Origin: a virus
DNA: 64,000 bases
Direction: 5' to 3' (one strand)
IMG/VR virus record: IMGVR_UViG_3300049201_000035
Location: 1,143-65,142 of that record
A model generated the notes under the pieces. The model did not search any database. It saw only the letters and a program-made list of their open reading frames with translations, and was not told where the DNA came from. The first letter of the stretch is position 1. Each line of letters starts with the position of its first letter. Positions 21,280 to 48,929 of the stretch are shown here, piece by piece. The translations under genes and the position numbers were made by a program.

Positions 21280-21818
21280 TATTCCTTTTTGTGCTGTCCA
21301 AGTAGACCGCCTGATACTTTTGTTGTGGATCCGCGGGTAATCGAAACCCGGTCTTGTTCGCTCAATCAAAAACTAATTTCACATGCTTGTGATGAAGGTT
21401 TTGAAGACCTACAACTTTGGGGTGTGACCGAAATCGCACCAACTCCACCACCTCATTTTGACAGAATAAGGAAACTGTACTTTCTAGGCTGCTACTCCCC
21501 AGACGATTACGTCGCGAGATGCAAGGGCAATCACTTTGACCTCCTTGCTGCTATTGCTGTTGCCATTTGTTTTTATGCGCACATTTTTAAGTGGTATAGC
21601 GCAATTCCACTGCATGTTAGTTAGTGACCGTAACGCCAATCTATGCCTGTCGGACCCATTTTGCCGTCTTTCCGGCTGCCAGTCTTTACGTGAATAGATG
21701 AGATATTTTAAGCCTTTCCTCTACTCCACCACCATTACCGCTGTAAGACTTCCGATCTTTAGGAGGGACAATGGTAGCTTATTCACACATTATAGGAGCA
21801 AGACATCGCCCCGCTACA

Positions 21819-27300: not shown

Positions 27301-27815
27301 CCAAAAGAACCGAAGCGATGATCGGCGCCAATGTCTTCCCTGCTATATTTGGAGGTAAAGGGGCGGCAAGCTTCAAAGCAACGGAAGATACCGGATTCGG
27401 TAGTAATTACGGCGCGGTATTCGAAGCAGACGGGGCGCCACTAGGATTCCATAACTTCGCTCTATACGCTGGGAAAGGAAAGTCTATGCTTTCGGAAGGG
27501 TTGATCAATGGCCGGTCTACCTATGTGGAGACAATCAGCACCACGATCACACGAGGTATTGATCCGAGCATTTACGACGCTGTAAGGATTAATGCAACCG
27601 GCGGTGTTGTAGGTCTCGGGTTTCTGAGTCCAACAATAGCGCTGGGAGATGGAAAGGAAATCACAATACTCAGTGAAAATGATGACCGGTCAATATATCT
27701 GGTAAATATCATCAGAGGCCGTGCAACAGTTGAGGTCGGCGGGGGAGTGGTTTGTACGATTGTTTATTTCAACGGCCACTGGCTAATCAAGGGGATGTAC
27801 AATAATGATTATTAA
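24288..27815 (+). CDS. Tail hub/spike (Tal-like) host-specificity protein
   Basis: 1175 aa; NRLYPEGSTENL, IFEDIKP, ADGKRRIF..PTTPYDVGD. Confidence 0.8.
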   Translation: MEQLVILNPDGSQYPLKRLYPLTDITRAVQSCDLLGQDVVDVDFESTEHLEMLIGMRIFVYGKYYTLNVLPEEQKSSTREFLYKCRFEGPQYALMSCRYFNTDASGLYTGSDFSLTGNIETFIDVLIYNCNRTFGSGKWVKGDVQASDTKTLTFSNVNCLQALQLTICKEFEVEFEITQSGDVSIITVKKVGQVLLETYQYGKGKGLYTLTRRPVGETTIVNRLYPEGSTENLKVGYRNYSSRLRIGDPNSGQDYIEDAGSIAAFGLIEGVKIFEDIKPHREGIVTGIIVDNPLKFVDLTMNFNLNEKEGENTKYLVAGKSAKIHFNTGDLAGYEFEIIDGGYIHEENSFTIIPITDAKGLKIPSIEPFTIKMGDKYVIIDIVMPQVYIDEAEADLATQAQIYLDANKAPMVAYGLSLEREYLKDKAPAGSIPNFFSLGDYVQIKDTDLGIDNASRIIKFTRNVLDPFVYSLEVADTYQIDLRVRILSDIKQLNNIVVLNNLMNPVTQRQSWRSAQELTNIYFDQDGYLKDGKIRAETLETAIALIGTDSGQLQVIGATFQANFQGQKNVVAVSAGQIVHLTVEPTIRTWNFNATGVGIADDGFRYVYARCNRTGSDASIVFSTSKIKTKEDASFYHFLLGILNSVDADTQTRRFSLTYGFTLIAGEWITTGTIQSADGSTGFNLNTGEIYGNIKFRAANGVNKDISDLETELKGLIQDVSEQTDGQVESWFLNGAPTLTNEPAIQWNTLELKMAHVGDNYFDNVSKKSYRFRQDSGVFSWQEVTDDRITQALLLASQAKDTADGKRRIFMVQPTTPYDVGDAWNKSTGWMVCKTQRLTGSFNPLDWELARIYDNTVTAINGGMAVTGALYLANADGTIKAFIRGGGTDDNEILLGLGASVENAEFAPFRARRSGVLELRKSIELFNSSNQGVAGICGINSAGDGLIVAWFGTNYSNRANAPTRIDMNGKFTTVSARIGGWEIDSNGLTNQDGNGYIIASSSNASKRTEAMIGANVFPAIFGGKGAASFKATEDTGFGSNYGAVFEADGAPLGFHNFALYAGKGKSMLSEGLINGRSTYVETISTTITRGIDPSIYDAVRINATGGVVGLGFLSPTIALGDGKEITILSENDDRSIYLVNIIRGRATVEVGGGVVCTIVYFNGHWLIKGMYNNDY

Positions 27816-29086
27816 CCGAAAATATCATCCATAGCCTCGTCAAGAGATTCTTTGTCCAGCTCGTTCATATACCGCTCAGTCGTGACAATGGATTTATGCC
27901 CGAGCGCATTTTTTATATCGAACAGCGTGATCTTCTGAGAGCCTTTCATCGATCGGCGGGCTTTGTCAGCAAATGAGTGTCTGGCTGTGTGGAAGGTGAT
28001 CGACTTATCGAGCTTGATCAATTTCGAAATCGTTTTCAGGTTGTTATTTATCTGCGATGTTTTGCTGCTCGTTGCCAAGGACAAAGCTTCTTTCATATCA
28101 AAGCTCATGGCCTTCTTTTGTGAATAGGTAATATAGGCTGCATAAGGAGCTTCATTATCCAGGACGGGGAAGATGTAATCCGTTTTCTTAGCAAGTGGGT
28201 TTTGATAATATGCAAGTATCGCCACCGCGGCTTTATTGAGCTTGATGCTTTTTTTATGGCCGGTCTTATCCATTTCATATTCCAGGCGCCCGTCAGCTGT
28301 AACGTTATTGTGCCTGAGCTGCATTAAGTCCGCTACCCTGATCCCTGCATTGTAATAGGAAAAAAGGTACATGTTCCGGGTATGGAACAGCCAGTTCTTT
28401 GGATTGTCAGTGTTAATCGTCAGATTTTCCATAGCTTCGATCTGATCGTCAGTTAGGCGCTGTTTCGATTCAGCCACCTCTGTCAATGTATCATGTGAGC
28501 GGAACGGGTCCTTGTCGATCAGGTTCATCCGCATAGCCGGGATGAATGTGTTATGGATCCGCTTCATGATATTGTTGATCGTCACATTTTTAATCTGGGT
28601 CCCGATCAAATGGATTTTAAACCGCTGCACGTGATCGGGCGTAATGTCGGCAAGTCTGGTGTCTTCGCCGACGAACTCCTGAAATCTGGTGAACATCGAT
28701 TTTGCTCCTTTATAATAAATGAAGGACTTTTCGACCTTCATTGCCTCCAATGTATTTTCAAAGTGAGTTTTTACGGTAATCCCGCCGATCTCTCCATTTG
28801 AATCGAACTTTCCTTTCAATACCTCTCCACCTCCTGCCACTTGTATCGCAACCTGCCTCTGAATTTTCTCGATCGATTCCTCGATGATCCGGTTTAGCTT
28901 CGCATGCTCCATATTAGAAGCGCGGACCCACCTTCCATATTTCGCTTTCGGGTTATAGTGCTCTTTCGGGATCATCACATCAGTGGCAATCCTTTTCATC
29001 TTACGATTCTCCGTGATCCGAATGTAAACCACATAAAAACCGTGTTTATTGGCCCGCTGGCTGAGCTCTGTGTTATAAGACGGCAT
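27812..29086 (-). CDS. int: Tyrosine integrase
   Basis: Arm-binding N-terminus, GIRVADL (R), HTARHSFA, LGHKSIVTTERY. Confidence 0.95.
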   Translation of the reverse strand: MPSYNTELSQRANKHGFYVVYIRITENRKMKRIATDVMIPKEHYNPKAKYGRWVRASNMEHAKLNRIIEESIEKIQRQVAIQVAGGGEVLKGKFDSNGEIGGITVKTHFENTLEAMKVEKSFIYYKGAKSMFTRFQEFVGEDTRLADITPDHVQRFKIHLIGTQIKNVTINNIMKRIHNTFIPAMRMNLIDKDPFRSHDTLTEVAESKQRLTDDQIEAMENLTINTDNPKNWLFHTRNMYLFSYYNAGIRVADLMQLRHNNVTADGRLEYEMDKTGHKKSIKLNKAAVAILAYYQNPLAKKTDYIFPVLDNEAPYAAYITYSQKKAMSFDMKEALSLATSSKTSQINNNLKTISKLIKLDKSITFHTARHSFADKARRSMKGSQKITLFDIKNALGHKSIVTTERYMNELDKESLDEAMDDIFG

Positions 29087-30439: not shown

Positions 30440-30745
30440 TTATCGGCATTTTGATTTCTCCAATTCGACTTCGTCAAAGTGTAGTTCCAGACGCTTGCCA
30501 TCGATCCATAGCACAGCACTCCTTTTACCCAGTTCTTCGATACTGTCAGCGATAAACCGCATTTCGTCCGGGTCTCCGTCTGGAACCTGACCGGGATTTC
30601 TTTTGCAGTACACAATCCATTGCCCGCAAGCCTCTTCGCTAATATCGCTTTTGGAGTCCATCGCATCGCAGGACCAAAGCGCCGATGCGACTATGAATGA
30701 AATTATAAATAAGCGAATCCCGGAACTTCCTTGTGGCGCCCTCAT
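30440..30745 (-). CDS. Putative lipoprotein
   Basis: Hydrophobic stretch ending LWSC; coupled to repressor. Confidence 0.55.
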   Translation of the reverse strand: MRAPQGSSGIRLFIISFIVASALWSCDAMDSKSDISEEACGQWIVYCKRNPGQVPDGDPDEMRFIADSIEELGKRSAVLWIDGKRLELHFDEVELEKSKCR

Positions 30746-31398
30746 ATTCGTTTGCTAAGGTGCCCATGTATGAGCCAAACGCTATCAATCGCAGCCTTAG
30801 GCAATTCGAATTCATCATAAAACTTATTGGCACTTTCCAGTAAAAACATATCCTTGTTGTTCTCTCGGTGCCGCTTCACATATCTGAGGTATTTCCTGCC
30901 ATCCCGGCAGACGATCAGATAAACCTGTCCAAATTCTAAGTGGCTGGTCCACTCATCTACTTTTGTGGTAAATATGATCGAACCCGGCTTGATCAATCCG
31001 TCCATTGCGTCAGTGTGTGCCCGGAACGCAAGGCAACCTGTAAAGTCTGGGGCATCCAGGTAATAGCTGGGCTCCGCTTTTTTTAGCGTCGACTCAAAGG
31101 TTGATCCCGGCTTGAAAAAATCTACGTCCCAGAAAGGGATCATTTCCTTTGATCGATCAGGCAATCTCCCTCCTCCTCTATGAAGTAACGATCCCATTTC
31201 TTCCTGCTGAGCTACTAGTTCATAAAATTCAACGCCAATAGCGGTTGCCACCTTCTGTATCGTATCAACTTGCGGCTTCTTTTGTTTTAAAAGAGATGTC
31301 ACGTTTTGCGGAGACGTATCAAGTCGCCTGGCTAGCTCAGCCTGTGATATCCCTTTCTCCGAAAGTAAAAACCGTATTTTTTCGCCAAAATCGGGCAT
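30742..31398 (-). CDS. CI/LexA-like repressor (XRE HTH + S24 domain)
   Basis: ISQAELARRLDTSPQNV; FRAHTDAMDG..GSII..YLRYVK. Confidence 0.9.
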   Translation of the reverse strand: MPDFGEKIRFLLSEKGISQAELARRLDTSPQNVTSLLKQKKPQVDTIQKVATAIGVEFYELVAQQEEMGSLLHRGGGRLPDRSKEMIPFWDVDFFKPGSTFESTLKKAEPSYYLDAPDFTGCLAFRAHTDAMDGLIKPGSIIFTTKVDEWTSHLEFGQVYLIVCRDGRKYLRYVKRHRENNKDMFLLESANKFYDEFELPKAAIDSVWLIHGHLSKRI

Positions 31399-31413: not shown

Positions 31414-31459
31414 TAAAGTTTTATCTTTATTATTTGCTTTATATAAAGTTGATGCTTTA
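31414..31459. promoter_or_regulatory. Two palindromic operators TAAAG-N6-CTTTA
   Basis: 31414-31429 and 31444-31459, 30 bp apart, between divergent promoters. Confidence 0.6.
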
Positions 31460-31465
31460 TATTTG
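31433..31465 (+). promoter_or_regulatory. Rightward early promoter
   Basis: TTTG (31433), 21 nt, TATATTTG (31458): full Bacteroidota consensus. Confidence 0.75.
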
Positions 31466-31595
31466 TATACATAATTGGAGAATGTAGCGCATACAAATAT
31501 AAAGAGCTTTACAAAGTTTCCTAAAAGTGACGCAATGTTGTTCAGTTAATATTACCAAAGTCCAATTTTTAATGATGACAGGCTCTCTTTTAGTG

Positions 31596-31829
31596 ATGAA
31601 AAACATGGAAGCACCAGTAAAAACACAAAAGCGCAAAGAGAAAGAGGCGGTAGATGCCAACATTTACCGTGATTACATCGCAATGAGCCAGTTATCGGGG
31701 TCCATGCAGACTGAAATCAAAAATCAGCTCGCCTTGAAGTACGGATACCGCCATTGGAGGTACATATATCCGGTGATTCGTCGGGTTGAAAAGAGAATGA
31801 TTCAAAAAGCAAAACTTCAAATCGCTTAG
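31596..31829 (+). CDS. Cro-like/hypothetical regulator
   Basis: First early gene divergent from repressor; start uncertain (31596 or 31605). Confidence 0.5.
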   Translation: MKNMEAPVKTQKRKEKEAVDANIYRDYIAMSQLSGSMQTEIKNQLALKYGYRHWRYIYPVIRRVEKRMIQKAKLQIA

Positions 31830-31853
31830 AGCCAGTTAAATCCTTGAAATCAA

Positions 31854-32621
31854 ATGGAAATAGAGCAATTTAAATTCAATGGCCAAGAGATGAGAACCCT
31901 AGTGGAGGAGTCAAATTCAGTCCTTTTCCTTGCTTCGGATGTTTGCCGGATACTCGGGTATCAAAACGGAAGAAAGGCGGTATCGGACCATTGCAAGTTG
32001 GATGGCGTAACGAAACGTTACATCATAGATTCCATGGGACGCAACCAAGAGGCGACCTTCCTGAGTGAGCCCAATATGTATCGGCTTGTAATGAAATCGA
32101 ACAAGCCCGAGGCTGAGCCATTTGAAAGATGGGTTATGGAAGAGGTTCTTCCGAGTATCAGAAGAAAGGGGTCTTATCAGAAAACTTCTGGTGAATTGTC
32201 AAGGAAGGATCTCGCGCTGATGGTAGTCCAGGCAGAGGAAGAAAAAGAACAAGCGTTACTTCGGTTAACCGAGGCCAATCAACAAATTGAGTCGGATAAG
32301 CCGAAAGTAATTTTTGCCGATGCGGTATCGGTTTCAGATAACAGCCTACTGATTGGAGAGGTAGCCAAGATATTGAAGCAAAAAGGTGTCAATATTGGCC
32401 AAAACAGATTATTCGAATGGATGAGGTCAAATGGGTATTTGATTAAGAGGTCCGCTACCGACTTTAATATGCCGACTCAGCGGGCTATGGATATGAAGTT
32501 ATTCGAAATTAAAGAAACCGCCATTACTCACTCCAATGGTAAAGTTAATATAGCTAAAACTCCGCGAGTGACTGGGATTGGTCAAATTCATTTCATAAAC
32601 AAATTTATTTCATCCCGATAA
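31854..32621 (+). CDS. Antirepressor (BRO-N + KilAC/ANT)
   Basis: FLASDVCRILG..EPNMYRLVMKS; KPKVIFAD..GQNRLFEWMR..VTGIGQIHF. Confidence 0.92.
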   Translation: MEIEQFKFNGQEMRTLVEESNSVLFLASDVCRILGYQNGRKAVSDHCKLDGVTKRYIIDSMGRNQEATFLSEPNMYRLVMKSNKPEAEPFERWVMEEVLPSIRRKGSYQKTSGELSRKDLALMVVQAEEEKEQALLRLTEANQQIESDKPKVIFADAVSVSDNSLLIGEVAKILKQKGVNIGQNRLFEWMRSNGYLIKRSATDFNMPTQRAMDMKLFEIKETAITHSNGKVNIAKTPRVTGIGQIHFINKFISSR

Positions 32622-32622
32622 C

Positions 32623-32844
32623 ATGCCAGCAACCCCACCAAAATCGATGTCCAAAGTTCGGGCAGCAATGGAAAGCCTAATGGAGCAATCAGGCTGCGCC
32701 CAAGACATCAAAGATCACTTGTCCGAAATGTTCCGCGCTAGCCTGGAATTCAACCCGCATTACAGTGAACACGGTGAGCGATTCCTGATCTATGAGGACC
32801 TGTGCAAGCTAGTCGACGAAATCGAAAATTATCTTTCAAAATAA
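32623..32844 (+). CDS. Hypothetical protein
   Basis: 73 aa. Confidence 0.5.
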   Translation: MPATPPKSMSKVRAAMESLMEQSGCAQDIKDHLSEMFRASLEFNPHYSEHGERFLIYEDLCKLVDEIENYLSK

Positions 32845-32851
32845 ACCTGAC

Positions 32852-33145
32852 TTGCTCATGGGAACGATGATCGTGATTGAAGAATCTGCATGGAAGGAGT
32901 TAACCGGACTTGTGAGAGACTTGAAGTCTGAATTCAGCAAGTTCCGGAAAGGAAAAACGGAGGCTCAGAATATGACACATCAGCAGGCGGCCAAATACCT
33001 TGGGTATTCAACCAAAAGGCTTTACACGTTCAAAGATGAGGGGAAGATAACTTTCTCGCAACACGGTGGCAAAATCATATATCGCCGGGAGGACCTGGAC
33101 GAATTTCTAGAAAAATACCGCGTAAAACGTAAAACATACACATAA
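32852..33145 (+). CDS. Excisionase-like HTH_17 protein
   Basis: MTHQQAAKYLGYS..LY..GKI..IYRREDLDEFL. Confidence 0.8.
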   Translation: MLMGTMIVIEESAWKELTGLVRDLKSEFSKFRKGKTEAQNMTHQQAAKYLGYSTKRLYTFKDEGKITFSQHGGKIIYRREDLDEFLEKYRVKRKTYT

Positions 33146-33156
33146 CAATAATTGTC

Positions 33157-33321
33157 ATGAACACTTCTATTTGCTCATTCATTAAGATTCTTAAACGGAT
33201 CATCGTCTACCTACTATCAGCCATATTCACAATCGTGCTGATTCCTTACGCTGCCAGTTTGATTTTTAAAAGACTCACAAGAACTAATTGGAAAAGATGG
33301 GAAAGATATCACTATTCGTAA
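33157..33321 (+). CDS. Small membrane peptide (54 aa)
   Basis: Hand-translated; hydrophobic core IIVYLLSAIFTIVLIP. Confidence 0.4.
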   Translation: MNTSICSFIKILKRIIVYLLSAIFTIVLIPYAASLIFKRLTRTNWKRWERYHYS

Positions 33322-33488
33322 TCCTCACGCTTGCCGTGATGTTCCAAGAGTGCGCAGGGAAAGTAATTTCCTGGGTTGCATCCAACCCGACCATGTGGAC
33401 AGATAGTGTAGGATACCTTATCCCAATGCTGCTTGTCGTCTTTGCCCTGCTGGCTCCCAAATACATCAACCGGTATCTGAACCGGTAA
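33288..33488 (+). CDS. Small two-TM membrane protein
   Basis: 66 aa, two hydrophobic segments. Confidence 0.5.
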   Translation: MEKMGKISLFVILTLAVMFQECAGKVISWVASNPTMWTDSVGYLIPMLLVVFALLAPKYINRYLNR

Positions 33489-33509
33489 CCCGAAACCACA
33501 AAAAATATC

Positions 33510-33665
33510 ATGTCAACCTCTGTTTGCCTGACCGAAGCACTCGGAAGGTCCACCGTGTACTACTACAAGCATTTCACTTACATCAACTTCACCGCTACCA
33601 TGGTGGTATGCATTGGATGTGCTGTGATTGCTGGATTTCTGCTTGAAAAGTTGAAAAAAGACTAG
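33510..33665 (+). CDS. Small membrane peptide (51 aa)
   Basis: Hand-translated; C-terminal TM then KLKKD. Confidence 0.4.
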   Translation: MSTSVCLTEALGRSTVYYYKHFTYINFTATMVVCIGCAVIAGFLLEKLKKD

Positions 33666-33714
33666 TGCGTATATACTAAATCGTAATAATTAAAAACAGT
33701 TAAATTCAATCAAA

Positions 33715-34638
33715 ATGGACGTAATCACAATTAATCAAACAGAGGTTTTGAGCGCTTTGAATCGATCTGAAGTCGATATCCAAATTGCCACGGCGAAGCA
33801 GTATCCAAGGAATATCACCAATGTCCTGAAAACCATTGAGCAGTATGCCACAATGGACGAAGAAACCGCAGAGGATTGCTTTTACGCTCTTCGCCGCGGG
33901 AAGGGGGATGATTCTTCGGTAATCGAGGGACTATCCGTTCGTATGGCGGAAATATTCGCCGGAGCCTGGGGCAACATTCGCGTTCAGACTCGTATAATTG
34001 GAAACGATGGAAAGACCATAACGGCTCAGGGCACTTGCCATGATCTTGAAACTAACTTCGCTACGTCAGTTGAGGTAAAGCGCAGAATAACAAACAAGCA
34101 AGGTCAGACATTCAGTGATGACATGCAGGTAGTTACAGGGAACGCGGCTGCGGCAATAGCTTTCCGAAACGCAGTTTTCAAGGTGATACCTAAGGCGGTT
34201 ACCAAAAAAGTGATCAACAACATCAAGCAGGTTGCATTAGGCCAATCGATTGACTTGGAGGAAACAAGACAAAAGATCGTTGCTCACTTTGCCAAGATCG
34301 GAGTTAACGAGCAGCAGATTGTTGAACACTTGGAGATTGATAAAATTTCCAGCATTAATAAAGAGAATGTTTTTTATCTGAGAAGCCTTGCCAACGCCAT
34401 AAAAGAGGGCACAACATCAGTAGCTGAGACTTTCAAAAAGAATGTAGCCGACTCCGACAAAATAGCGGACGAGGCCAAAAAGAAAGCTGATGAGATAAAG
34501 AACAAGACGCAAGATGCCATGAGTAAAGCCAATTCTGTATCTGGCCAAGGATCTGTTACGACTGCTGACAAACTCGATGACATGAAGTCTGATGTAGTTG
34601 ACACCGACACAGGAGAAGTGACTTCAAATTCTAAATAA
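33715..34638 (+). CDS. Putative ssDNA-annealing/recombination partner
   Basis: 307 aa directly upstream of YqaJ nuclease, acidic tail DTGEV; family not recognised. Confidence 0.5.
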   Translation: MDVITINQTEVLSALNRSEVDIQIATAKQYPRNITNVLKTIEQYATMDEETAEDCFYALRRGKGDDSSVIEGLSVRMAEIFAGAWGNIRVQTRIIGNDGKTITAQGTCHDLETNFATSVEVKRRITNKQGQTFSDDMQVVTGNAAAAIAFRNAVFKVIPKAVTKKVINNIKQVALGQSIDLEETRQKIVAHFAKIGVNEQQIVEHLEIDKISSINKENVFYLRSLANAIKEGTTSVAETFKKNVADSDKIADEAKKKADEIKNKTQDAMSKANSVSGQGSVTTADKLDDMKSDVVDTDTGEVTSNSK

Positions 34639-34643
34639 GAGAT

Positions 34644-34736
34644 TGAATTAGGGAATATGATTGCAACAGTGAAAAGCCCGTAGCCGGGAGATGCCGAGTG
34701 TTGCGACGCGGACGCTAGGCGGTCCGACCTAATTCA
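34644..34736 (+). ncRNA. Candidate multi-stem RNA
   Basis: 9-bp closing stem enclosing three nested helices. Confidence 0.4.
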
Positions 34737-34757
34737 TGATTTAAATCTAAAACAACC

Positions 34758-35720
34758 ATGTCAACAACATTCGCAGCAACCGCCAAGCCGGTTAAATTGA
34801 CCCCAAAAAGCCGGGAGGAATGGCTTTCACTTCGCCATGGTATTGGCAGCTCTGAAATTGCTACACTACTCGGTTTGAACAAATGGGAAACGCCGTACCA
34901 GCTTTGGCTACGCAAAACCGGGCAGGCTCCTCCCAAAACAGAATCGTTCGCGATGCGAGCCGGTCACTATCTCGAAGATGCAGTCACTTTGTTCTGGCAG
35001 GACGAAACGGGCCGTCAGGTTATCAAGTCTTCCGCATCGGATTTGATATACGTGCATCCCGAAAAGGATTTCCTCAGGGTTTCACCAGACCGCACCTTCT
35101 GGATTCCAGGAATGTCGAGAAATGACGACAATAAAGGCGTCCTTGAATGTAAAACAACACAAATGGTTGTGGATCCGGAAGACCTGCCGCAAACGTGGTT
35201 TTGCCAAATTCAATATCAATTGGGCGTCATGCAGAAGGAACAGGGCTCAATTGCCTGGCTTCAAGCAGGCAGAGAATTTGGGTACAAAGACATCCGTTTC
35301 GTTCCTGATTTCTTCGAATGGATCATTGACGAAGCAGAAAAGTTTTGGTTCGTCAATGTGCAGGGAATGGTTGAGCCCTCATTAACTACGTCCGAGGATG
35401 TTTTGATCAAATACGCAAGTCACTTTAACGGAAAATCCGTCGAGGCGCCAGAAGGGTTGGTTTACTCGCTTACGCAGCTCCGTGACGTCAAAGACCAGAT
35501 CAAGGATCTTGAAGCGCAAAAGGATTCCATCGAAGAACAGACGAAAATGTACATGATGGACGCAGAAGCTCTGGTTTATTCCGGTCAAACGCTGGCGACG
35601 TGGAAATCGGCAAAAGGAAGTGAGAAATTTGACGCGAAGTCATTTGAAAAGGAGCACCCTGACTTGTACTCGAAATTCCTGGTTTCAACTCCCGGATCGA
35701 GAAGGTTCCTGCTGAAATAA
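34758..35720 (+). CDS. YqaJ-like viral recombinase exonuclease
   Basis: GIGSSE..GHYLE..SPD..LECKT..QIQYQL. Confidence 0.92.
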   Translation: MSTTFAATAKPVKLTPKSREEWLSLRHGIGSSEIATLLGLNKWETPYQLWLRKTGQAPPKTESFAMRAGHYLEDAVTLFWQDETGRQVIKSSASDLIYVHPEKDFLRVSPDRTFWIPGMSRNDDNKGVLECKTTQMVVDPEDLPQTWFCQIQYQLGVMQKEQGSIAWLQAGREFGYKDIRFVPDFFEWIIDEAEKFWFVNVQGMVEPSLTTSEDVLIKYASHFNGKSVEAPEGLVYSLTQLRDVKDQIKDLEAQKDSIEEQTKMYMMDAEALVYSGQTLATWKSAKGSEKFDAKSFEKEHPDLYSKFLVSTPGSRRFLLK

Positions 35721-35722
35721 CA

Positions 35723-35935
35723 ATGCAAGCCCTAATCAAACACGACGCCGACTCAACTCCAATATGGGGATTCGTAATATTCGAGCCGAAAGGTTGGAAA
35801 ATCATCGAAAACAAAGCAAGGCCGTTCGTGTTCACCGACGCGATTACCATTGAAGATATCGACTCGCTATCTGGCGGAATGGCTACCAAAATGGGGTTTC
35901 AACTTAAAAAAATAAGCATTGAAGTAGATGGTTAA
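35723..35935 (+). CDS. Hypothetical protein
   Basis: 70 aa. Confidence 0.45.
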   Translation: MQALIKHDADSTPIWGFVIFEPKGWKIIENKARPFVFTDAITIEDIDSLSGGMATKMGFQLKKISIEVDG

Positions 35936-35980
35936 GGGTTTATAGTCATGCCCGGACATACTTCCGGCCCCGGATGAGGG
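35936..35980 (+). ncRNA. Repeated RNA motif copy A
   Basis: ATAGTCATGCC-stem CCGGA/TCCGG-CCCCGGA; homologous to 40202-40260. Confidence 0.5.
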
Positions 35981-36007
35981 AATGAAAAATCTTCAAAAAA
36001 ATCAACC

Positions 36008-36790
36008 ATGAAATACGAAAAGATTTTGTACCCAGACGGGTCGTTTTACGCAAAAATTATCGATTACGGCGAGCCAATGGTAATCACCGAGCGGATCAAC
36101 AGCTATAACGACCTATGGTTCATCAAGCAACTGAAAGACGCCATGGATCATCAAGGGCTTCAATGTCATCTATCCATTCCGTGCTTGCTCGACGCTCAGG
36201 CAGATAGGAGGTTCAATTCGAATGAGTCGTCCAATTTAAAGCTGGTTTGCGACTTCATCAACGAACTTGAATTTGTTTCGGTGACCGTATTCCATCCTCA
36301 CAATCCAGAGGTGGTCGAGAATCTTATCGATAATTGTGTGATTCGGGATAATCGGAGATTTATTCAAAAAGTGCTGGCTGACATTGGCAAGGACCAGGAC
36401 GAGCTGATTCTTTTCTCAACCGACGCGGGAGGATTTAAGCCATTGATGAAGCTGGCTGATAAAATGAAGTGGGAGGGGGAGGTTTATTCGGCGAACAAGT
36501 CAAGGAAATGGGCCAATGGCAAATCCTCGCTCGTTCAACAAATCGATCGGTCGGACTTTCAAGGAAAATCTATTCTGATTATCGACGACTTGTGTGTGTA
36601 TGGCGGGACGTTCATTGGCCTACGATCATTATTGGCTGACAGAAATGTTGGAGAGCTTTACCTGGCTGTTTCTCACATGACAGTACCAAATCCCAACCCT
36701 CATTTGTCAGAGTTTACCCATGTGTTCACTACCGACAGCAAGTATGACTCCTACGATCTGTTCAATTTAACCGTATTCCCCCACGAATAA
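36008..36790 (+). CDS. PRPP-synthetase-like protein (Adps candidate)
   Basis: YPDGS, DAQADRRF, STDAGG, IIDDLCVYGGTF, LAVSH. Confidence 0.85.
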   Translation: MKYEKILYPDGSFYAKIIDYGEPMVITERINSYNDLWFIKQLKDAMDHQGLQCHLSIPCLLDAQADRRFNSNESSNLKLVCDFINELEFVSVTVFHPHNPEVVENLIDNCVIRDNRRFIQKVLADIGKDQDELILFSTDAGGFKPLMKLADKMKWEGEVYSANKSRKWANGKSSLVQQIDRSDFQGKSILIIDDLCVYGGTFIGLRSLLADRNVGELYLAVSHMTVPNPNPHLSEFTHVFTTDSKYDSYDLFNLTVFPHE

Positions 36791-37206
36791 TGGATCAGTA
36801 TCTAGCCCCAAATTCTAATTTCGTCAGGCTTAGGAATGAGTTCGACCAATATGGATCGCTTGTAATTGCCTTCGATTTCGACAACACCGTTTTTGATTTT
36901 CACGGTCAGGGCCACTCCTACACGATGGTAATCGAATTACTGAGAGATTTAAAATCCATCGGCTGTCAATGCATTTGCTTCACGGCCAGCGAGGATGTTG
37001 AATTGATCAAATCGTATTGCGAGGACCGAAACATCCCGCTGGATGGAATTAATGTTAATCCGGCATTCTTCACTTCGTCAAGCGGTAAAATTTACTTCAA
37101 CGCTTTGTTGGACGATCGCGCCGGGTTGATTGAGGTGTACAACACCCTGATTGCGCTGGTTAACTATGTAAAATACACTCGAAATGCAGACCAAAAAATC
37201 GATTAA
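36790..37206 (+). CDS. Small HAD-like hydrolase
   Basis: AFDFDNT, FTA, LLDDRAG. Confidence 0.75.
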   Translation: MDQYLAPNSNFVRLRNEFDQYGSLVIAFDFDNTVFDFHGQGHSYTMVIELLRDLKSIGCQCICFTASEDVELIKSYCEDRNIPLDGINVNPAFFTSSSGKIYFNALLDDRAGLIEVYNTLIALVNYVKYTRNADQKID

Positions 37207-37537
37207 CGGGATTTTGATGAATATTCAGTACAAAGACTGGATGTTCATTGTCGACGAAAGAGAAGACTGCTTCACATTGCAAATACAGTTCGATGACGAA
37301 TGCACCGTGACCGGCAAAGTTGAAAGGCAGTATTGCAGGAAATGGTTCCTATCTAAACACATGACCGCCAATGAAATCGTTCGAACCGCCTTCATGGCTG
37401 TTGAAAAGGCTGAATTTCACGAATTGTGTGAAAAATTTAGGTATATGGGCAAGCTGATCAATAATCCGCACATCGATTTAGTAAAGGTAGCCTCAGGAGT
37501 AGTTGATTTTCACAATTTAGACCACAGACAAAAATGA
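37184..37537 (+). CDS. Hypothetical protein
   Basis: 117 aa; RKWFLS..EIVRTAF..E.HE. Confidence 0.6.
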   Translation: MQTKKSINGILMNIQYKDWMFIVDEREDCFTLQIQFDDECTVTGKVERQYCRKWFLSKHMTANEIVRTAFMAVEKAEFHELCEKFRYMGKLINNPHIDLVKVASGVVDFHNLDHRQK

Positions 37538-39015
37538 AAGTATTGCCAATTTTACTCTCCGACAGTTACAAACAATTTCACCAGAAAATGTACCCGAAGG
37601 GAATGGTTAAGCTGTATTCAAACGGGACTCCGCGCAGCTTCAAGCACATGAATACCGACAGTGCTGTATTTTTCGGGTTGCAGTATTATATCAAGGAATA
37701 TCTTATTAATCAGTGGAACGAACTGTTCTTCGACAAGGATATTGAGCCGATCCTATCTGAATACCGAAGGTTTCACAAGCATTTCAGCTTTGTCGATATC
37801 GAGACAACCCACATTGAGAAGTTGCACGCGCTCGGCTATTTGCCAATTTCAATAAAGGCCTTGCCCGAGGGGTCTAAAGTCAAAGAGAAAGTTCCTTTTT
37901 ACACTATTGTAAATACGCATCCGGATCATGCATGGCTGGTGAACTTCCTGGAAACGCAGATGTCAACCGTTATTTGGGACCTGTGCGTTAATGCCACCAT
38001 CGGGTATCAATACCGGTCCTTGCTTGATCAGTGGGCCATTAAAACCACAGGTTCAAAAGAATTTGTACAGTGGCAGGGGCATGACTTTTCAATGCGTGGC
38101 AGGAGTAGTGTTGAGTCTTCATTTAATCAGGCTGGTTGGCTTCTTTCGTTCACCGGAACCGACACCATCCCGGCAGTCCTGATGCTGGAAGAGTATTACA
38201 ATGCAAATATCGAAAAGGAGTTGGTTGGCAGCAGCGTGCCGGCGTCAGAACATTCTGTAATGACATCCTATGGTAAGGAGGAGGAAATTGATGCTTTCAG
38301 AAGGTTGCTCTCGCTTTTTCCCTCCGGCATATTATCCGTTGTTAGCGACAGCTTCGACCTATGGAAAGTTTGCACCGAATTTATGGTTGAGTTGAAAGAG
38401 GAAATATTAGCCCGAGATGGTAAGCTTGTAATCAGACCAGACTCAGGGGATCCGGTTGATATAATTTGCGGAACGATGTTCGCAACTGACTCGGATAGCA
38501 CACCAAGGCAAGAGGGAGTTATTGATCTTCTATGGGATGTCTTCGGCGGAACTGTAAATGATCAAGGATATAAAGTTCTCGATCCTCACATAGGAGCAAT
38601 TTACGGGGATAGCATTGATCTGAAACGGGCCGACACGATATGTGAACGACTTTCTCAAAAGGGATTCGCATCAACCAACATTGTTTTCGGGGTAGGAAGC
38701 TACACCTTCAACTACAACACCAGGGATTCTATTGGATTTGCGGTGAAGTCCACCTACTGTGAGGTTCTGGAAGATGGATCATCTGAGCCGGTCGCCCGGG
38801 AAATATTCAAGGACCCAATCACGGACAGTGGGATTAAAAAATCAGCAAAGGGTATGCTTGCTGTATTCAAAGATGATAAGGGCGATTTTTTCCTGAACGA
38901 TCAATGTACGTACGAAATGGAGTCATCAGGGGAATTGGTTCCTGTTTTTTCTGACGGATTCCTCTTGGTTGATCAGTCGCTGTCTGAAATACGGGCAAGG
39001 TTAGCATCCAACTAA
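37534..39015 (+). CDS. Nicotinamide phosphoribosyltransferase-like (Nampt/Namat)
   Basis: SDSYK, HDFSMRG, PASEHS, VVSDSFD, RPDSGDP, YGDSI. Confidence 0.93.
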   Translation: MKVLPILLSDSYKQFHQKMYPKGMVKLYSNGTPRSFKHMNTDSAVFFGLQYYIKEYLINQWNELFFDKDIEPILSEYRRFHKHFSFVDIETTHIEKLHALGYLPISIKALPEGSKVKEKVPFYTIVNTHPDHAWLVNFLETQMSTVIWDLCVNATIGYQYRSLLDQWAIKTTGSKEFVQWQGHDFSMRGRSSVESSFNQAGWLLSFTGTDTIPAVLMLEEYYNANIEKELVGSSVPASEHSVMTSYGKEEEIDAFRRLLSLFPSGILSVVSDSFDLWKVCTEFMVELKEEILARDGKLVIRPDSGDPVDIICGTMFATDSDSTPRQEGVIDLLWDVFGGTVNDQGYKVLDPHIGAIYGDSIDLKRADTICERLSQKGFASTNIVFGVGSYTFNYNTRDSIGFAVKSTYCEVLEDGSSEPVAREIFKDPITDSGIKKSAKGMLAVFKDDKGDFFLNDQCTYEMESSGELVPVFSDGFLLVDQSLSEIRARLASN

Positions 39016-39042
39016 TTAATAAGCTTCAATAAACCAAATCCA

Positions 39043-39405
39043 ATGACAATCTCAGGAACAATAATAAGCATCCTGCCAATGCAGGAAGGGGAAAAACGAA
39101 ACGGCGAAAAGTGGTTCAAGCAGGAGTACATCCTGGAAGTTCCCGGCCAGTACCCGAAAAAGGTGTGCTTCTCGCTTTGGGGTGATAAGATCGGTGAATG
39201 CAGCCTGCGTGAGAACGATAAGGTGACCGCGCATATCGATGTGGAGTCGCGGGAATATAACAGTCGCTGGTATACCGAAATAAAAGCGTGGAAAGTGGAG
39301 AAGGAGGGGAATGCGTCTCCGTCTCAGGGTAACCAGCAGCGGGCGAGTGATCCGGTACCGGCGGGGATGGAGAGTAATGATGATGGGTCAGATTTACCTT
39401 TTTAA
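39043..39405 (+). CDS. ssDNA-binding protein (DUF3127-like)
   Basis: FSLWGDK..SREYNSRWYT..AWK, C-terminal DLPF. Confidence 0.88.
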   Translation: MTISGTIISILPMQEGEKRNGEKWFKQEYILEVPGQYPKKVCFSLWGDKIGECSLRENDKVTAHIDVESREYNSRWYTEIKAWKVEKEGNASPSQGNQQRASDPVPAGMESNDDGSDLPF

Positions 39406-39419
39406 AACCAACAAAAAAC

Positions 39420-40196
39420 ATGGGAAGGACTTTAAAACGAGTGCCATTGGACTTCAAGTGGCCGATCGGCCAGGTTTGGAAGGGGTATATATGCCCATAT
39501 CGCAGTCAGGAATGTAAATCATGCGGCGGGTCTGGGTTGAATCCCGAGACTAAGAGATTGAGCGACGAATGGTATTCATTGGACAGGGTTAAATGGGTAT
39601 TTGTTTCTCCAAACAAGCGCTACAATGATCTTGCGTGGGTGAATCACATTACAGATATCGAAGTTGATGCATTGATGAAGTCTGGGAGAATTGGATGCGT
39701 TTCCGGATTCAATGGGTATTATGACGAAGAGCGTTCTGTGTGGGTAAAATGGGTTGATGGGCAAAGGATAGATTGCGAAAAGCCTTCTTATCCAACCTCG
39801 GAAATGGTTAACAATTGGCAGAGGAATGGCGGAATGGGTCACGATGGAATTAACCAGTGGATATGCGTGAAGACCCGAGCGAATCATCTAGGGGTGTATG
39901 GCAAATGCGAGTATTGTGAAGATGGAGAAATATGGCACAGTGAAGATATCAAGGCTATGTCCGAGTCGTGGCAACCATTTGAGCCGCCATTAGGCGATGG
40001 TTTTCAGATGTGGGAAACAACCAGCGAAGGCAGCCCTAAATCTCCCGTATTCGCTACCATAGAGGAACTATGCGAATGGCTGGATGTTAATAAAGCTTCT
40101 GTTTTTGGATCAAACACTGCTTCAAAAGAGGATTGGATCAGACTGCTTTCCGATGACTTAGTAGCCTATCAATCCGGTAATTCTATTTTTATTTAA
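39420..40196 (+). CDS. Phage hypothetical protein
   Basis: RVPLDFKWP, CKSCGGSG, FQMWETTSEGSP.SPVF. Confidence 0.65.
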   Translation: MGRTLKRVPLDFKWPIGQVWKGYICPYRSQECKSCGGSGLNPETKRLSDEWYSLDRVKWVFVSPNKRYNDLAWVNHITDIEVDALMKSGRIGCVSGFNGYYDEERSVWVKWVDGQRIDCEKPSYPTSEMVNNWQRNGGMGHDGINQWICVKTRANHLGVYGKCEYCEDGEIWHSEDIKAMSESWQPFEPPLGDGFQMWETTSEGSPKSPVFATIEELCEWLDVNKASVFGSNTASKEDWIRLLSDDLVAYQSGNSIFI

Positions 40197-40201
40197 CGAT
40201 T

Positions 40202-40260
40202 GGGTTAGGAATAGTCATGCCGCCAGACATAAGCACTCGCATCTGGCCCCGGAATCCGGG
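40202..40260 (+). ncRNA. Repeated RNA motif copy B
   Basis: ATAGTCATGCC-stem CCAGA/TCTGG-CCCCGGA. Confidence 0.5.
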
Positions 40261-40358
40261 TTTATACACGTAATTATTTCGATTTAGTTTTCAGCGCCGC
40301 CAGAACGCTATTGTGGCTCCGCGGTTGCGGAAGTGCTTCACCTTTAATAATCAGATCG

Positions 40359-41918
40359 ATGTTTGATCCAGAATTTTACCCTTGCTCGAAAGCGGCTTGG
40401 GATGCTATGAATGTGGATTGCTATGGGAAGAGGGTGCTTGACCCATCGGCCGGCAAAGGCGACATTCTAAAATATGCATTGCAGTCTGGCGCCCATTCAG
40501 CAGAAGGGATTGAAAAGGATGTCGAATTGCGACGACTTCTTTCTACGAAATATCCCGTTATTGGTCAAGATTGGTTTGATGCAAAATCGGAAGATATAAG
40601 CCACGTGCAACTCATACTCATAAATCCTCCCTACTCGAATGCAGACCAACATATTTTACATGCGTGGAATATTGCGCCGGAAGGATGCGAGATAGTATCC
40701 CAATGCAATGCAGAAACAATCAATAACCCATACAGCCAAAAGCGAAAAGAACTTAAGTCTCTGATTGCTAATTATGGAAGCGTCGATAATTTCGATGGAG
40801 CATATAAGGTCGCTGAGCGGTCAACCGATGTAAGTATTTCAGTCATTAGACTTTTCAAGCCAGTTTCGGCAACGAGTGATGCATTTGAAGGATTTTATTA
40901 TGATATGCCCGAATTGAATGATGTATCTGGAGTTGTCCGGTATAATGAGATCCAGGCGCTTGTTAATAGCTACACCGGAGCAGTTCGCTGTTTTGATCGA
41001 TTTGCTGACGTCGGACATGAGCTGAATAACATCTGCAAGTCTGTCGGATTTGGAACCCATGGTGGATTCAACTACAAGGTTTCCTCCGTGGATGTAGATG
41101 ATCGAGGACATGATAAAGGTGAGATAGTGGACAAGGCCACATTTGCTAGGGCATTGCAGAAGAAATGCTGGAAGATCGTTTTTGCAAAATTTGACCTTGA
41201 AAAGTACCTCACCAGGGGCGTTATGTCAAAGGTTAATGAATTTGTGGAAAGCAGATTGAACTATCCATTCACCATGAAAAACATCTTTCGAATGGTGGAG
41301 ACTATCGTCGGAACCTCAGGCGAAAATATGGAGAGAGCTATTGTCGAAGCGGTGGACAATTTTACAATGTATACTGATGACAATAAGTATAATCTGGAAG
41401 GCTGGAAGACCAACGCTGGCAATCTTTTGAATACAAAATTCATAACGCCTTATATCTGTGAGTACCAATACGCATGGGAGGGTAATAATGGGGTAAAAAT
41501 CAATACCCACCAAGGTAAGTTTGCGCAAATTACTGACCTGGTGAAAGCGCTTTGCTTTCTTACCGGCAAGGATTATAATAGAATGCCTCCAATCGGAGAC
41601 TCATCCTTGTCAAAGGATCTTCAAGCAGAACTGCTTGCCATTAGAGAGAAGGAGGAGGAAAAAACTGGGAAATACAACCGGCTTACGATCGGGTACCCAT
41701 CACCCTCTGGTTACGGTTATTTCAAGCCAAATACATGGTATGAGTGGGGATTCTTCCGATTCAAGGTGTATAAAAAAGGAACTGGTCATTTTGAATTCCT
41801 GGATGAGAATGTATGGGCCAAGCTAAATCAGGCGTATGGGAAAGCAAAAGGCAGCCCACTCCCGGAGACGATCAAGAAGCGCAAAGATAATCGCACGAGC
41901 GATAAACAAGCTGCATAA
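40359..41918 (+). CDS. Amino-type DNA methyltransferase with DUF4942-like C-terminus
   Basis: VLDPSAGKG, INPPY; C-terminal EWGFFRFKVYKKGTGH. Confidence 0.8.
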   Translation: MFDPEFYPCSKAAWDAMNVDCYGKRVLDPSAGKGDILKYALQSGAHSAEGIEKDVELRRLLSTKYPVIGQDWFDAKSEDISHVQLILINPPYSNADQHILHAWNIAPEGCEIVSQCNAETINNPYSQKRKELKSLIANYGSVDNFDGAYKVAERSTDVSISVIRLFKPVSATSDAFEGFYYDMPELNDVSGVVRYNEIQALVNSYTGAVRCFDRFADVGHELNNICKSVGFGTHGGFNYKVSSVDVDDRGHDKGEIVDKATFARALQKKCWKIVFAKFDLEKYLTRGVMSKVNEFVESRLNYPFTMKNIFRMVETIVGTSGENMERAIVEAVDNFTMYTDDNKYNLEGWKTNAGNLLNTKFITPYICEYQYAWEGNNGVKINTHQGKFAQITDLVKALCFLTGKDYNRMPPIGDSSLSKDLQAELLAIREKEEEKTGKYNRLTIGYPSPSGYGYFKPNTWYEWGFFRFKVYKKGTGHFEFLDENVWAKLNQAYGKAKGSPLPETIKKRKDNRTSDKQAA

Positions 41919-42468: not shown

Positions 42469-42936
42469 ATGGCCACTTGGCACCAAGCGAAGATCCGCTA
42501 TCAGAAGGAAGATGAAGCGGGAACTTTAAAGACAGTCAATGAGGTGTACCTTTTTGATTCGGTCAGTTTCACAGAGGCTGAGGCCCAGGCGTATAAACGA
42601 ATCGTAACCGGCGCCAGCGACTTCTCAGTCACCAGTATTACAAGAATGCGCCTGGCGGACCTGTTCATGTATGACGAAGGGGAGCAGTTCTTCAAAGCGA
42701 AGGTTGTTTACTTCTCAGTTGATGAGAAATCCGGTCACGAAAAGAGAATCGTCAATCAAATGCTCGTTAACGCCGACAGTACCGGCCAAGCGCTCGACAG
42801 GATCAACGAAAGCATGAGAAACTTCCTGATGCCTTACACGATCGAATCGGTCGCCTTAACGCCTATTTTGGATGTATATCCATATATAAACGAAGGGGAT
42901 GTTGAAATACCGGCAAATTTGAAAAAAATCGAATAA
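42469..42936 (+). CDS. DUF4494-like protein
   Basis: W..KIRY.K..YLFDSVSFTEAE, FFKAKV..DEKSG.EK. Confidence 0.8.
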   Translation: MATWHQAKIRYQKEDEAGTLKTVNEVYLFDSVSFTEAEAQAYKRIVTGASDFSVTSITRMRLADLFMYDEGEQFFKAKVVYFSVDEKSGHEKRIVNQMLVNADSTGQALDRINESMRNFLMPYTIESVALTPILDVYPYINEGDVEIPANLKKIE

Positions 42937-47773: not shown

Positions 47774-48929
47774 CCTATTCAGTGGTATCGGAGGCTTCGA
47801 TCTTTCATCTCAGTGGATGGGGTGGAAAAACTACGTTAGCTGTGAGATTAACGAGTTTGGCAATAAGGTGCTCGAATATTACTGGCCAGGGGCCTACCAC
47901 CATAGAGACATTCATACTCTCGATTATGCAACAATTAACACTGAACTTTCAAAACGATTCGGAACCCACTGGAGAAACGATGATATCATCCTCTCAGGTG
48001 GGTTCCCATAAGGACCGTGCCAGCCTTATAGCTCAGCAGGTAAACGCCTTGGAAAGGAAGATGACCGGCACCTCTGGCCGCAGATGCTTAGAACAATTCG
48101 GGAGATTGAGCCGACTTGGGTTGTGGGCGAAAACGTTCGCGGGCTTACTAATTGGAATGGAGGGCTGGTATTCAACGAGGTGTGGTCTGACCTGGAAGCT
48201 CTCGGCTATGAAGTCATCCCGTTTCTACTTCCAGCTTGTGCCGTCGACGCACCGCACCGACGCGACCGAATATGGTTTATTGCCTACTCCGGTAGTAAGC
48301 GATATGGAGGGCGGAGACACGGACACGGTGAGTTTGAAGAACGGTCGGTTTGTCAGGATCAGCAAGGACGGGACGGAGTTCGGCGCGAAGATTCAACACG
48401 CGGCGAAGTTGTTGCCGACTCCGCAGGCGATCGACGGATCAGGGAAAGGTCGGGCTCTTCGGATGAAAACAGGAAATCGGAACCCGGACAGCGTGGGATC
48501 ATGGCGAGGGGATTTGAAGGATTACGCGCACATGGACTTACTCCCTACTCCCAGAGCAAACGATTCAGAGAAGCGCGGCCAGATTTCGGCCGATCCAAGG
48601 AACGGGCTACCGGGGCTAGCGGTAAATGGATTTTTACCGACACAAACGGCCAGCAGCGACGCGAAGGGAGGTTGTACACGGCCGAACGAGAAGCGGCAGA
48701 ACGACACGTTGGCGCATTCGATTCATGGAATGGTCGGAGAACCTGGCAAGACTTCCCAACTCAATCCCCGGTTCGTTCTGGAAATGATGGGTTTCCCACC
48801 GGACTGGACGGAATTACCCTTTCAAAGTGGCGAAATGAATCCATAAAAGCGGCCGGCAATGCGATCGTTCCGCAAGTAGCCTTCCAGATTTTTCAAGCAA
48901 TACAACAGTTTCACGATACAAAACTTTAA
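47760..48929 (+). pseudogene. C5-cytosine DNA methyltransferase alpha chain interrupted by in-frame TAA (48009-48011); pseudogene or recoded
   Basis: FSGIGGFD (I), CEIN (II), GGFP*GPCQ (IV), GENV (VI), HRRDRIWF (VIII), GNAIVP (X), all in one frame. Confidence 0.8.
48061..48846 (+). CDS. Nested alternative-frame methyltransferase beta subunit
   Basis: +1 frame inside the MTase; four LLPTP-like modules; QLNPRFVLEMMGFPPDWT motif IX-like. Confidence 0.72.
   Translation: MTGTSGRRCLEQFGRLSRLGLWAKTFAGLLIGMEGWYSTRCGLTWKLSAMKSSRFYFQLVPSTHRTDATEYGLLPTPVVSDMEGGDTDTVSLKNGRFVRISKDGTEFGAKIQHAAKLLPTPQAIDGSGKGRALRMKTGNRNPDSVGSWRGDLKDYAHMDLLPTPRANDSEKRGQISADPRNGLPGLAVNGFLPTQTASSDAKGGCTRPNEKRQNDTLAHSIHGMVGEPGKTSQLNPRFVLEMMGFPPDWTELPFQSGEMNP

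Follow-up and report, generated by a model that had tools for sequence, protein, structure and literature searches.

Some phages keep their accessory and anti-defense genes modular by means of repeated junction elements, of which only the promoter-early stem-loop (PeSL) cassettes of T4-type phages have been characterized so far (Arbiol et al. 2010, PMC2839356; Comeau et al. 2014, PMC4122927). PeSLs contain a strong host sigma-70-type promoter and a terminator stem-loop, and number about 50 per genome (PMC2839356, PMC4122927). Here we analyzed a 64,000-nucleotide (nt) stretch of viral DNA (hereafter the window: bases 1143-65142 of the 79,631-bp IMG/VR virus record IMGVR_UViG_3300049201_000035, which has direct terminal repeats) and found in its early region a ~50-base double-hairpin element that is undescribed and lineage-restricted. 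The virus is a temperate siphovirus; its closest relatives are the IMG/VR records G001 (81 kb) and G002 (79 kb) and a prophage of Dyadobacter sp. LHD-138, so its host is most likely Dyadobacter (Spirosomataceae, Bacteroidota). In behavior, the PeSL is the closest analogue of this element. Both are short repeated intergenic modules with a stem-loop that reach from an upstream stop codon to the downstream leader, and both are concentrated in the variable accessory region of the early genome, where they are exchange points between unrelated genes. The Dyadobacter element differs in its two small hairpins, mostly without a U-tract, in its invariant non-promoter sequence, in its number (1-3 clustered copies per phage) and its temperate siphovirus setting, and in the absence of a Bacteroidota promoter box, without which it does not count as a PeSL in the narrow sense. 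We tentatively favor the reading that it acts in cis as a junction RNA within the polycistronic early mRNA and also provides an anchor for recombination.

An earlier note on this DNA had singled out two similar sites, here called copies A and B, and both can be read where it placed them. Copy A (35936-35980: GGGTTTATAGTCATGC CCGGA CATACT TCCGG C CCC GGATGA GGG) begins with a single-stranded 5' part, GGGTTTATAGTCATGC, that has an ATG at 35948-35950. Its first hairpin has arms at 35952-35956 and 35963-35967, and its second, after a linker C at 35968, has arms at 35969-35971 and 35978-35980. In copy B (40202-40260: GGGTTAGGAATAGTCATGCC GCCAGA CATAAGCACTCGCA TCTGGC CCCGG AAT CCGGG), the 5' part GGGTTAGGAATAGTCATGCC has its ATG at 40217-40219, the arms of hairpin 1 lie at 40222-40227 and 40242-40247 around the loop CATAAGCACTCGCA, and those of hairpin 2 at 40248-40252 and 40256-40260 around the loop AAT. 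The compensatory change that the note described between the two stems (CCGGA/TCCGG in A, CCAGA/TCTGG in B) is real, and the hairpin-1 loops do differ in length, with 6 nt (CATACT) in A and 14 nt in B. The two copies have in common an exact 11-mer, ATAGTCATGCC, found twice in the whole 79.6-kb genome, and an exact 9-mer, GGCCCCGGA, found twice in the window.

Since MAFFT alone misaligned the variable loops, we made alignments by iterating covariance models, built from 2 copies (R1), then 5 (R2), then 17 (R3). A loose hairpin descriptor was too unspecific, with as many matches in shuffled sequences, and served only to spot candidates. Copy A and the 16 others aligned with it define a common anatomy. 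The single-stranded 5' part, GGGUUUAGGAA..(C)AUGC(C), has the consensus GGGU(U)UAGGAA, a variable 0-8 nt, and (C)AUGC(C), and is followed by a spacer of 0-3 nt. Hairpin 1 has 5-6 bp; the two pairs nearest the loop are G-C and A-U in 17/17 copies, and the lower pairs vary freely (stems CCGGA, CCAGA, GCCGA, UCCGA, GGAGA, GCGGA, UUCGA and CUGGA); its loop always begins with CAU and is mostly 6 nt, up to 15 nt, long. One linker base separates it from hairpin 2, which has 4-5 bp and a 3-4-nt loop (often UUU or AUU), shows no sequence conservation, and gives way to an A/U-rich leader.

Both hairpins covary strongly. In the 17-copy alignment 90.9% of cells are paired, as against 67.1 ± 2.6 in shuffles (0/500 reach 90.9%), and in 8 of the 10 pairs both members have changed. 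Covariation scores 0.562, compared with 0.04-0.12 once the 3' partners have been displaced by 1-3 columns; the test was also made on an 11-copy version. The stems hold 12 G.U against 5 C.A combinations, which favors the given strand. A further pairing, between the 5' GGG and a CCC of hairpin 2, can be drawn in 7 copies, but we rejected an HDV-like (hepatitis delta virus) or other GGG:CCC interaction because it does not covary: hairpin 2 changes fully (AAGCU, CCGC, CUGC, AGCC) as GGGU stays constant.

After removal of duplicates, the family comprises at least 22 good distinct copies and 4 weak ones, from three IMG/VR phage genomes (G000, G001, G002), several metagenome contigs and Dyadobacter prophages. 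With R3, we found the element in 13/62 Dyadobacter genomes and no good copy in the other 49. R2 gave matches in only 3/151 Spirosomataceae genomes and a few among metagenome and viral contigs bearing DUF4494, a gene discussed below. The scan of Bacteroidota phages that the earlier note had proposed recovers the family in relatives; R2 had no match below E 0.4 when run on more distant Bacteroidota phages that carry the exonuclease (138 loci, 2.08 Mb). Loci reached from the Prs-like gene (L005, L006) and the INPHARED GenBank phage records yielded neither a close relative nor the motif. Chance similarity was rejected on the covariance-model scores and the negative controls in the distant phages. 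The proposed comparison with Rfam was likewise run: a scan of the window at the gathering thresholds of Rfam 15 returned a transfer-messenger RNA (tmRNA) as its only match, and a scan of five motif loci at E<=5 returned two unrelated chance matches only, so that a known RNA family, Bacteroidota motifs included, or a small ribozyme was rejected. Dyadobacter genomes of 5-9 Mb have only 1-3 copies, and those whose surroundings we examined adjoin phage genes; in host genomes of 7.5 Mb the copies lie in prophage regions. A host repeat of the REP/RAYT type (repetitive extragenic palindrome with its associated transposase), expected in tens to hundreds of copies, and a mimic of CRISPR (clustered regularly interspaced short palindromic repeats) repeats were rejected, as host genomes have no extra copies or arrays.

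G002 has three copies within 1.3 kb directly 3' of its exonuclease, with the hairpin-1 stems GCCGA/UCGGC, UCCGA/UCGGA and CCAGA/UCUGG and entirely unlike second hairpins; the Dyadobacter prophage also has the element directly 3' of this gene. The LHD-138 prophage has two copies that share GGAGGGTnnTTATGCCG, and G001 has two in tandem, 30 nt apart, one of which (G001_2) also has a long hairpin-1 loop and a sequence so similar to B that it looks like its counterpart. In the R3 scan of the window, the next match after A and B reached only E 0.79. Directly after B lies a tandem sequence, B' (GATTTAG..GCG CC GCCAGA ACGCTAT TGTGGC T CCGC GGTT GCGG), with GCG instead of ATG and CGC in the loop; it resembles L008:8192-8241 and the GCG/CGC variant L255:2692-2742, and is a probable decayed or variant third copy. 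Its score, given in Table 1, is not significant alone.

At G144:C24:781793-782134 (L169/L185) in a Dyadobacter genome, a phage-type DUF4494 copy next to the motif has one internal TGA and one internal TAG codon and its neighboring open reading frames (ORFs) are fragmented; the locus looks like a decaying prophage remnant, in which the motif is still well formed, with a U.G change in hairpin 2. The loose descriptor also picked up L259:1525-1541 (IMGVR_UViG_2634166314_000002; TTTAAGGGTCAGG..GTG GCAGA CATTGAT TCTGC), possibly a distant relative of the motif but perhaps a chance match, in a phage with a DUF4494 of only 38% identity.

Every copy is co-oriented with its flanking genes, on the coding strand. 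In most, 0-18 nt separate the upstream stop codon from the start of the element, and 20-39 nt its end from the next ATG. Members of tandem pairs and a few copies upstream of very small ORFs depart from this pattern. In the window, as the earlier note had observed, each copy follows a stop codon, A by 0 nt after the TAA of a 70-amino-acid (aa) ORF and B by 5 nt after that of a 258-aa ORF. Copy A ends 25 nt upstream of the Prs-like gene, and B lies 97 nt upstream of the likely start of the DUF4942 methyltransferase, which comparison with L007 places probably at the ATG at 40359. The tie that the note drew to counter-defense genes turned out not to be specific: across the family the element precedes the Prs-like gene, three different DNA methylases, DUF4494, a cluster of ASCH-like genes, and many small or unrecognized ORFs.

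What the first reading had missed is that the element is a cassette junction; the weak third copy B' is a further correction to it. Relatives that share the upstream exonuclease have different cargo after the element, and the NARP1-like block of the window is absent between their copies. One exchange can be located exactly. The metagenome contig L217 and G002 (L217:1-585 versus G002:C1:70038-71715, L152/L256) are 94% identical over the element (L217:1-68, G002:70038-70105), after which homology picks up again at G002:71212, 25 nt before DUF4494. The 1.1 kb in between is a methylase cassette present in G002 and not in L217, and its left breakpoint is the last base of hairpin 2. The cassette encodes a 355-aa DNA methylase 34% identical to the window methylase at 47782-48846. 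Copies within a genome (A and B; the two of LHD-138) are more alike than copies from different genomes, which suggests gene conversion between them.

The occurrence of the same ~50 bases between unrelated genes suggests how the element might act as DNA: it would serve as a homologous anchor for the insertion, loss and exchange of cassettes such as the NARP1 block, methylases and small ORFs. As RNA, it would occupy the spaces between cistrons where the early rightward operon of temperate Dyadobacter siphophages is variable, with a leader of ~25-39 nt, rich in A and U, between the double hairpin and the next start codon. A trans factor, either a phage or a host protein, may read the invariant bases on this scaffold and so mark off the downstream cistron. 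Most likely, an endonuclease would process the transcript so that the double hairpin stays behind as a cap protecting the end, or the entry of ribosomes at the leader downstream would be controlled. The element combines PeSL-like evolutionary behavior, here in temperate Bacteroidota phages, with a different and clearly structured design that lacks a promoter. This suggests post-transcriptional punctuation in a phylum where little is understood of how translation starts and RNA is processed. The RNA is small and well defined, with 22 natural variants and natural compensatory mutants, and is testable in culturable Dyadobacter lysogens; its DNA could also be used as a marker for cargo slots, such as that of the NARP1 block, in related phages.

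Several points weigh against this reading. Folded singly, A and B do no better than shuffles (z +0.76 and -0.30), which means that the two copies alone prove nothing and that the proof comes from relatives. The alignments used for counting pairs were fitted to the model structure and are hence biased toward it, although the conclusion on structure is safe because the stems are so completely different between copies. Pairing of the stems could equally serve single-stranded DNA, and we infer action at the RNA level, with its trans factor and its effect on processing or translation, from strand bias and covariation only. The evidence for a cassette breakpoint is one clean pair of loci. A search across motif-bearing genomes identified no partner protein; DUF4494 is the only co-travelling gene, yet it is a single-copy core gene in 62/62 Dyadobacter genomes, and two motif-bearing genomes, G176 and G167, have no copy of it near the motif.

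A rival is a purely DNA-level explanation, in which the element is a recombination hot spot or a single-stranded DNA site, attC-like or PeSL-like, and has no function as RNA. The exact cassette breakpoint, the tandem copies with no intervening gene, and the intragenomic likeness seen in the 11- and 9-mers of A and B and in GGAGGGTnnTTATGCCG all agree with it. Homology alone, however, leaves unexplained the compensatory changes in two short stems, the invariant unpaired bases and the excess of G.U over C.A, and the element has no host promoter box. We consider this explanation unlikely. Integron attC sites form one long imperfect palindrome with R''/L''-L'/R' cores and extrahelical bases, and are recombined by IntI. 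Our element is like attC sites and integrase-less attC clusters in being structured, strand-specific, and located at the boundary of single-gene cassettes, but it consists of two short hairpins that covary independently and not of a single palindrome with R''/R' cores. Nor does it have the cores RYYYAAC and GTTRRRY; its 5' part includes GTTAAGG and GTTTAGG, neither of which matches GTTRRRY. No IntI-type integrase was identified: the only one seen in the window is the phage tyrosine integrase (27812-29086), whose likeness to IntI was not examined. We rejected attC sites, REP elements and type III antitoxin repeats as identities, since the element lacks their defining features.

The RNase III sites of the T7/T3 early region (R0.3-R1.3) also invite comparison. 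Those sites are single long irregular hairpins of ~20 bp or more with an internal loop. The likeness is that both are conserved structured RNAs that are read on the mRNA strand and lie at gene junctions within a long early transcript; the difference is that two hairpins of 4-6 bp with a conserved single strand cannot as such be substrates of RNase III.

Table 1. Coordinates of the junction element and of features around it in the window.
Feature	Position	Strand	Basis or remark
Junction element, copy A	35936..35982	+	17-copy covariance model (R3): 44.3 bits, E 2.8e-11
Junction element, copy B	40202..40261	+	R3 covariance model: 45.0 bits, E 1.8e-11
B', tandem right after B (probable third copy)	40281..40332	+	8.7 bits, E 0.94
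Tyrosine integrase of the phage	27812-29086	-	
CI-type repressor	30742-31398	-	
Bacteroidota-type -7 promoter box TATATTTG	31458..31465	+	early rightward operon
Divergent Bacteroidota-type -7 box TATATTTG	31494	-	
RecE/YqaJ-like exonuclease	34758-35720	+	upstream of copy A
70-aa ORF	35723-35935	+	between exonuclease and copy A
Cargo block between copies A and B	36008..40196	+	Pfam and PHROG scans
Prs-like/Adps gene	36008-36790	+	cargo block
NAMPT-like gene	37534-39015	+	cargo block
Other ORFs of the A-B cargo: 138-aa ORF, DUF4028, DUF3127 (like single-stranded DNA-binding protein, SSB), 258-aa ORF		+	
DUF4942 DNA methyltransferase	40359..41918	+	downstream of B/B'
Next -7 box on the + strand	41516	+	
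Phage DUF4494 paralogue	42469-42936	+	downstream of DUF4942 methyltransferase

The locus (Table 1) has a lambda-like layout with an integrase, a CI-type repressor and divergent promoters, and its exonuclease is 78% identical to that of the LHD-138 prophage. The cargo between A and B reads, on domain matches, as a NARP1-like block for reconstitution of nicotinamide adenine dinucleotide (NAD+) plus extras, and replication genes come after DUF4494. On the + strand, no canonical -7 box TAnnTTTG occurs from 31466 to 41515, so A and B would be internal to one long early transcript that they share.

This layout bears on the proposal, one of three functions listed in the earlier note, that the element is a site of processive antitermination giving read-through of terminators into the replication genes. 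The lambda nut site consists of a single-stranded boxA and a boxB hairpin, whose pentaloop is fixed and GNRA-like and is bound by N, and nutL and nutR are promoter-proximal. The put site of HK022, about 65-70 nt long, has two stem-loops one unpaired base apart that act directly on RNA polymerase without a protein. Our element recalls nut in its place in an early rightward operon upstream of a replication module, and in having a conserved single strand and then a small hairpin of 5 bp whose bases next to the loop are invariant; it recalls put in its two hairpins with a one-base linker. In contrast to the one promoter-proximal site per early operon expected of nut, A and B lie 4.5 and 8.7 kb past the promoter box at 31458, the first of them about 10 genes in, phages carry 1-3 clustered copies of which some are tandem, and the leftward operon has none. 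The hairpin-1 loop varies over 6-15 nt and keeps only its first three bases (CAU), which is unlike a fixed pentaloop, and the element is much smaller than put and placed differently. No N-, Q- or NusG-like gene was recognized among the scanned ORFs, in which small arginine-rich proteins would be hard to detect, and no terminator-like sites stand out downstream. We regard antitermination as unlikely. The note's broader claim fared better in part: a functional, structured and strand-specific element has good support in the covariation of both hairpins (17-22 copies), the strict co-orientation and the fixed intergenic placement, and of the functions that the note listed, the nut/put option fits worst.

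A composite of a terminator and a non-canonical promoter, making the element a true PeSL analogue, would have the hairpins attenuate transcription and a promoter dependent on a phage or alternative sigma factor restart it ~30 nt upstream of every gene. The leader that follows hairpin 2 is as long as a typical 5' untranslated region, the loop of hairpin 2 with the next base often reads TTTG, ATTG or CTTG, similar to the TTTG of the -7 box, and in PeSLs promoters and stem-loops overlap (PMC2839356). However, no copy has the TA of TAnnTTTG, no TTTG is found at a fixed -33 spacing, the GGGT-GACAT distance varies over 16-24 nt, and a U-tract follows hairpin 2 in under half of the copies, none of which the terminator scan calls. 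We judge such a composite quite improbable and the terminator character of the element doubtful. We set aside an intrinsic terminator as such on the scan result and the inconsistent U-tracts, and rejected a sigma-A or extracytoplasmic-function (ECF) type promoter on the missing -7/-33 boxes and the variable GGGT-GACAT spacing. In alignment A14, the hairpin-2 loops are mostly a U-rich triloop followed by G, with TTTG, ATTG or CTTG in about two thirds.

The company of NARP1-like genes and methylases raises the idea that the element is a counter-defense decoy RNA expressed from an anti-defense island, for example a mimic of a type III antitoxin RNA, of a CRISPR repeat or of a nuclease substrate. 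Its small size, its structure, which may include a pseudoknot, and the tandem copies seen now and then agree with this. But the copies are dispersed and only about 60% alike and do not form tight identical tandem repeats, many precede ordinary early genes, and neither Rfam nor the host genomes offer a match, an array or an extra copy. We therefore hold this to be very improbable.

The AUG of the 5' part suggests a further rival reading. This position is ATG in 19/22 good copies and GTG in 3/22, and opens an ORF of 9-30 codons through both hairpins, with GGAGG/AGGA-like purines upstream. It could be a mini-ORF start or a ribosome-binding decoy, with GGAGG/AGGA 3-13 nt upstream of AUG/GUG, that relays ribosomes from the stop codon to the next start or holds a ribosome that stabilizes the mRNA, as in a stabilizing Shine-Dalgarno (STAB-SD) type of element. 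GGAGG lies 6 nt upstream in both LHD-138 copies and AGGA 3-7 nt upstream in several others, and the peptide of most copies is M-x-x-D-I/M-L, often MPPDI. However, ATG and GACAU lie 4, 5, 6 or 7 nt apart, so neither frame nor peptide is kept, and we rejected a conserved leader peptide; the length of the ORF is unconstrained as well. Genuine genes of these phages have A/U-rich leaders without a Shine-Dalgarno sequence, as expected in Bacteroidota, whereas the AUG of the element abuts a GC-rich hairpin, and the variant at L255:2692-2742, with GCG for ATG, retains both hairpins. Either role for the AUG seems to us unlikely.

The mini-ORF (window 35948-35977 and 40217-40271) reads MPPDI in B, in copy 2 of LHD-138, and in G089, G163, G167 and G176. 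PPD is a strong EF-P-dependent ribosome-stalling motif; here MPPDI probably reflects merely the conserved bases AUGCCGCC.GACAU.

The same AUG could pair with the CAU that opens the hairpin-1 loop, forming a compact H-type pseudoknot in which this pairing stacks on hairpin 1 and hairpin 2 serves as the clamp. The geometry would give a first loop (L1) of 1-3 nt, no L2, and the remainder of the hairpin-1 loop as L3. The only good copy without the AUG, again L255:2692-2742, has GCG with the loop CGC, a double compensatory change that B' repeats, and the combination GUG/CAU occurs twice. Weak copies with GCG/CAU and AGG/CGU, by contrast, do not fit. In its fullest form, the idea is that these phages have a new class of RNA bound by a dedicated factor, possibly an eL20/LX-like DUF4494, that controls every swappable early cassette. 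We think this unlikely, and treat the pseudoknot as a lead and not as a result.

DUF4494 (PF14902) owes its place in this idea to its neighborhood. It is the sole ORF common to all six motif-bearing genomes that we compared, where it lies at most about 4.5 kb downstream of the element on the same strand, and in L217 it follows the element immediately. It is predicted to fold (predicted local distance difference test score, pLDDT, 82.7) into a beta-beta-alpha-beta module present in duplicate, for which a fold search gave at best middling matches, to the ribosomal proteins eL20/LX (Z 6-7). Our literature search found no mention of the family. Besides the window locus and one locus in each of the 62 Dyadobacter genomes, the gene occurs at G005:C16:47545 and in Bacteroides thetaiotaomicron. 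Extra paralogues are found in these phages and, as phage-type copies, in some Dyadobacter genomes, and most DUF4494 loci have no element. Given this and its core-gene status, its link with the element may be plain synteny, and the case for an obligatory partner is weakened.

Elsewhere in the window, the tmRNA found by Rfam (RF00023, 52.6 bits, E 7.8e-18) is a full-length gene at 21323-21657 on the minus strand, within a 13-kb minus-strand accessory block of the complete phage genome.

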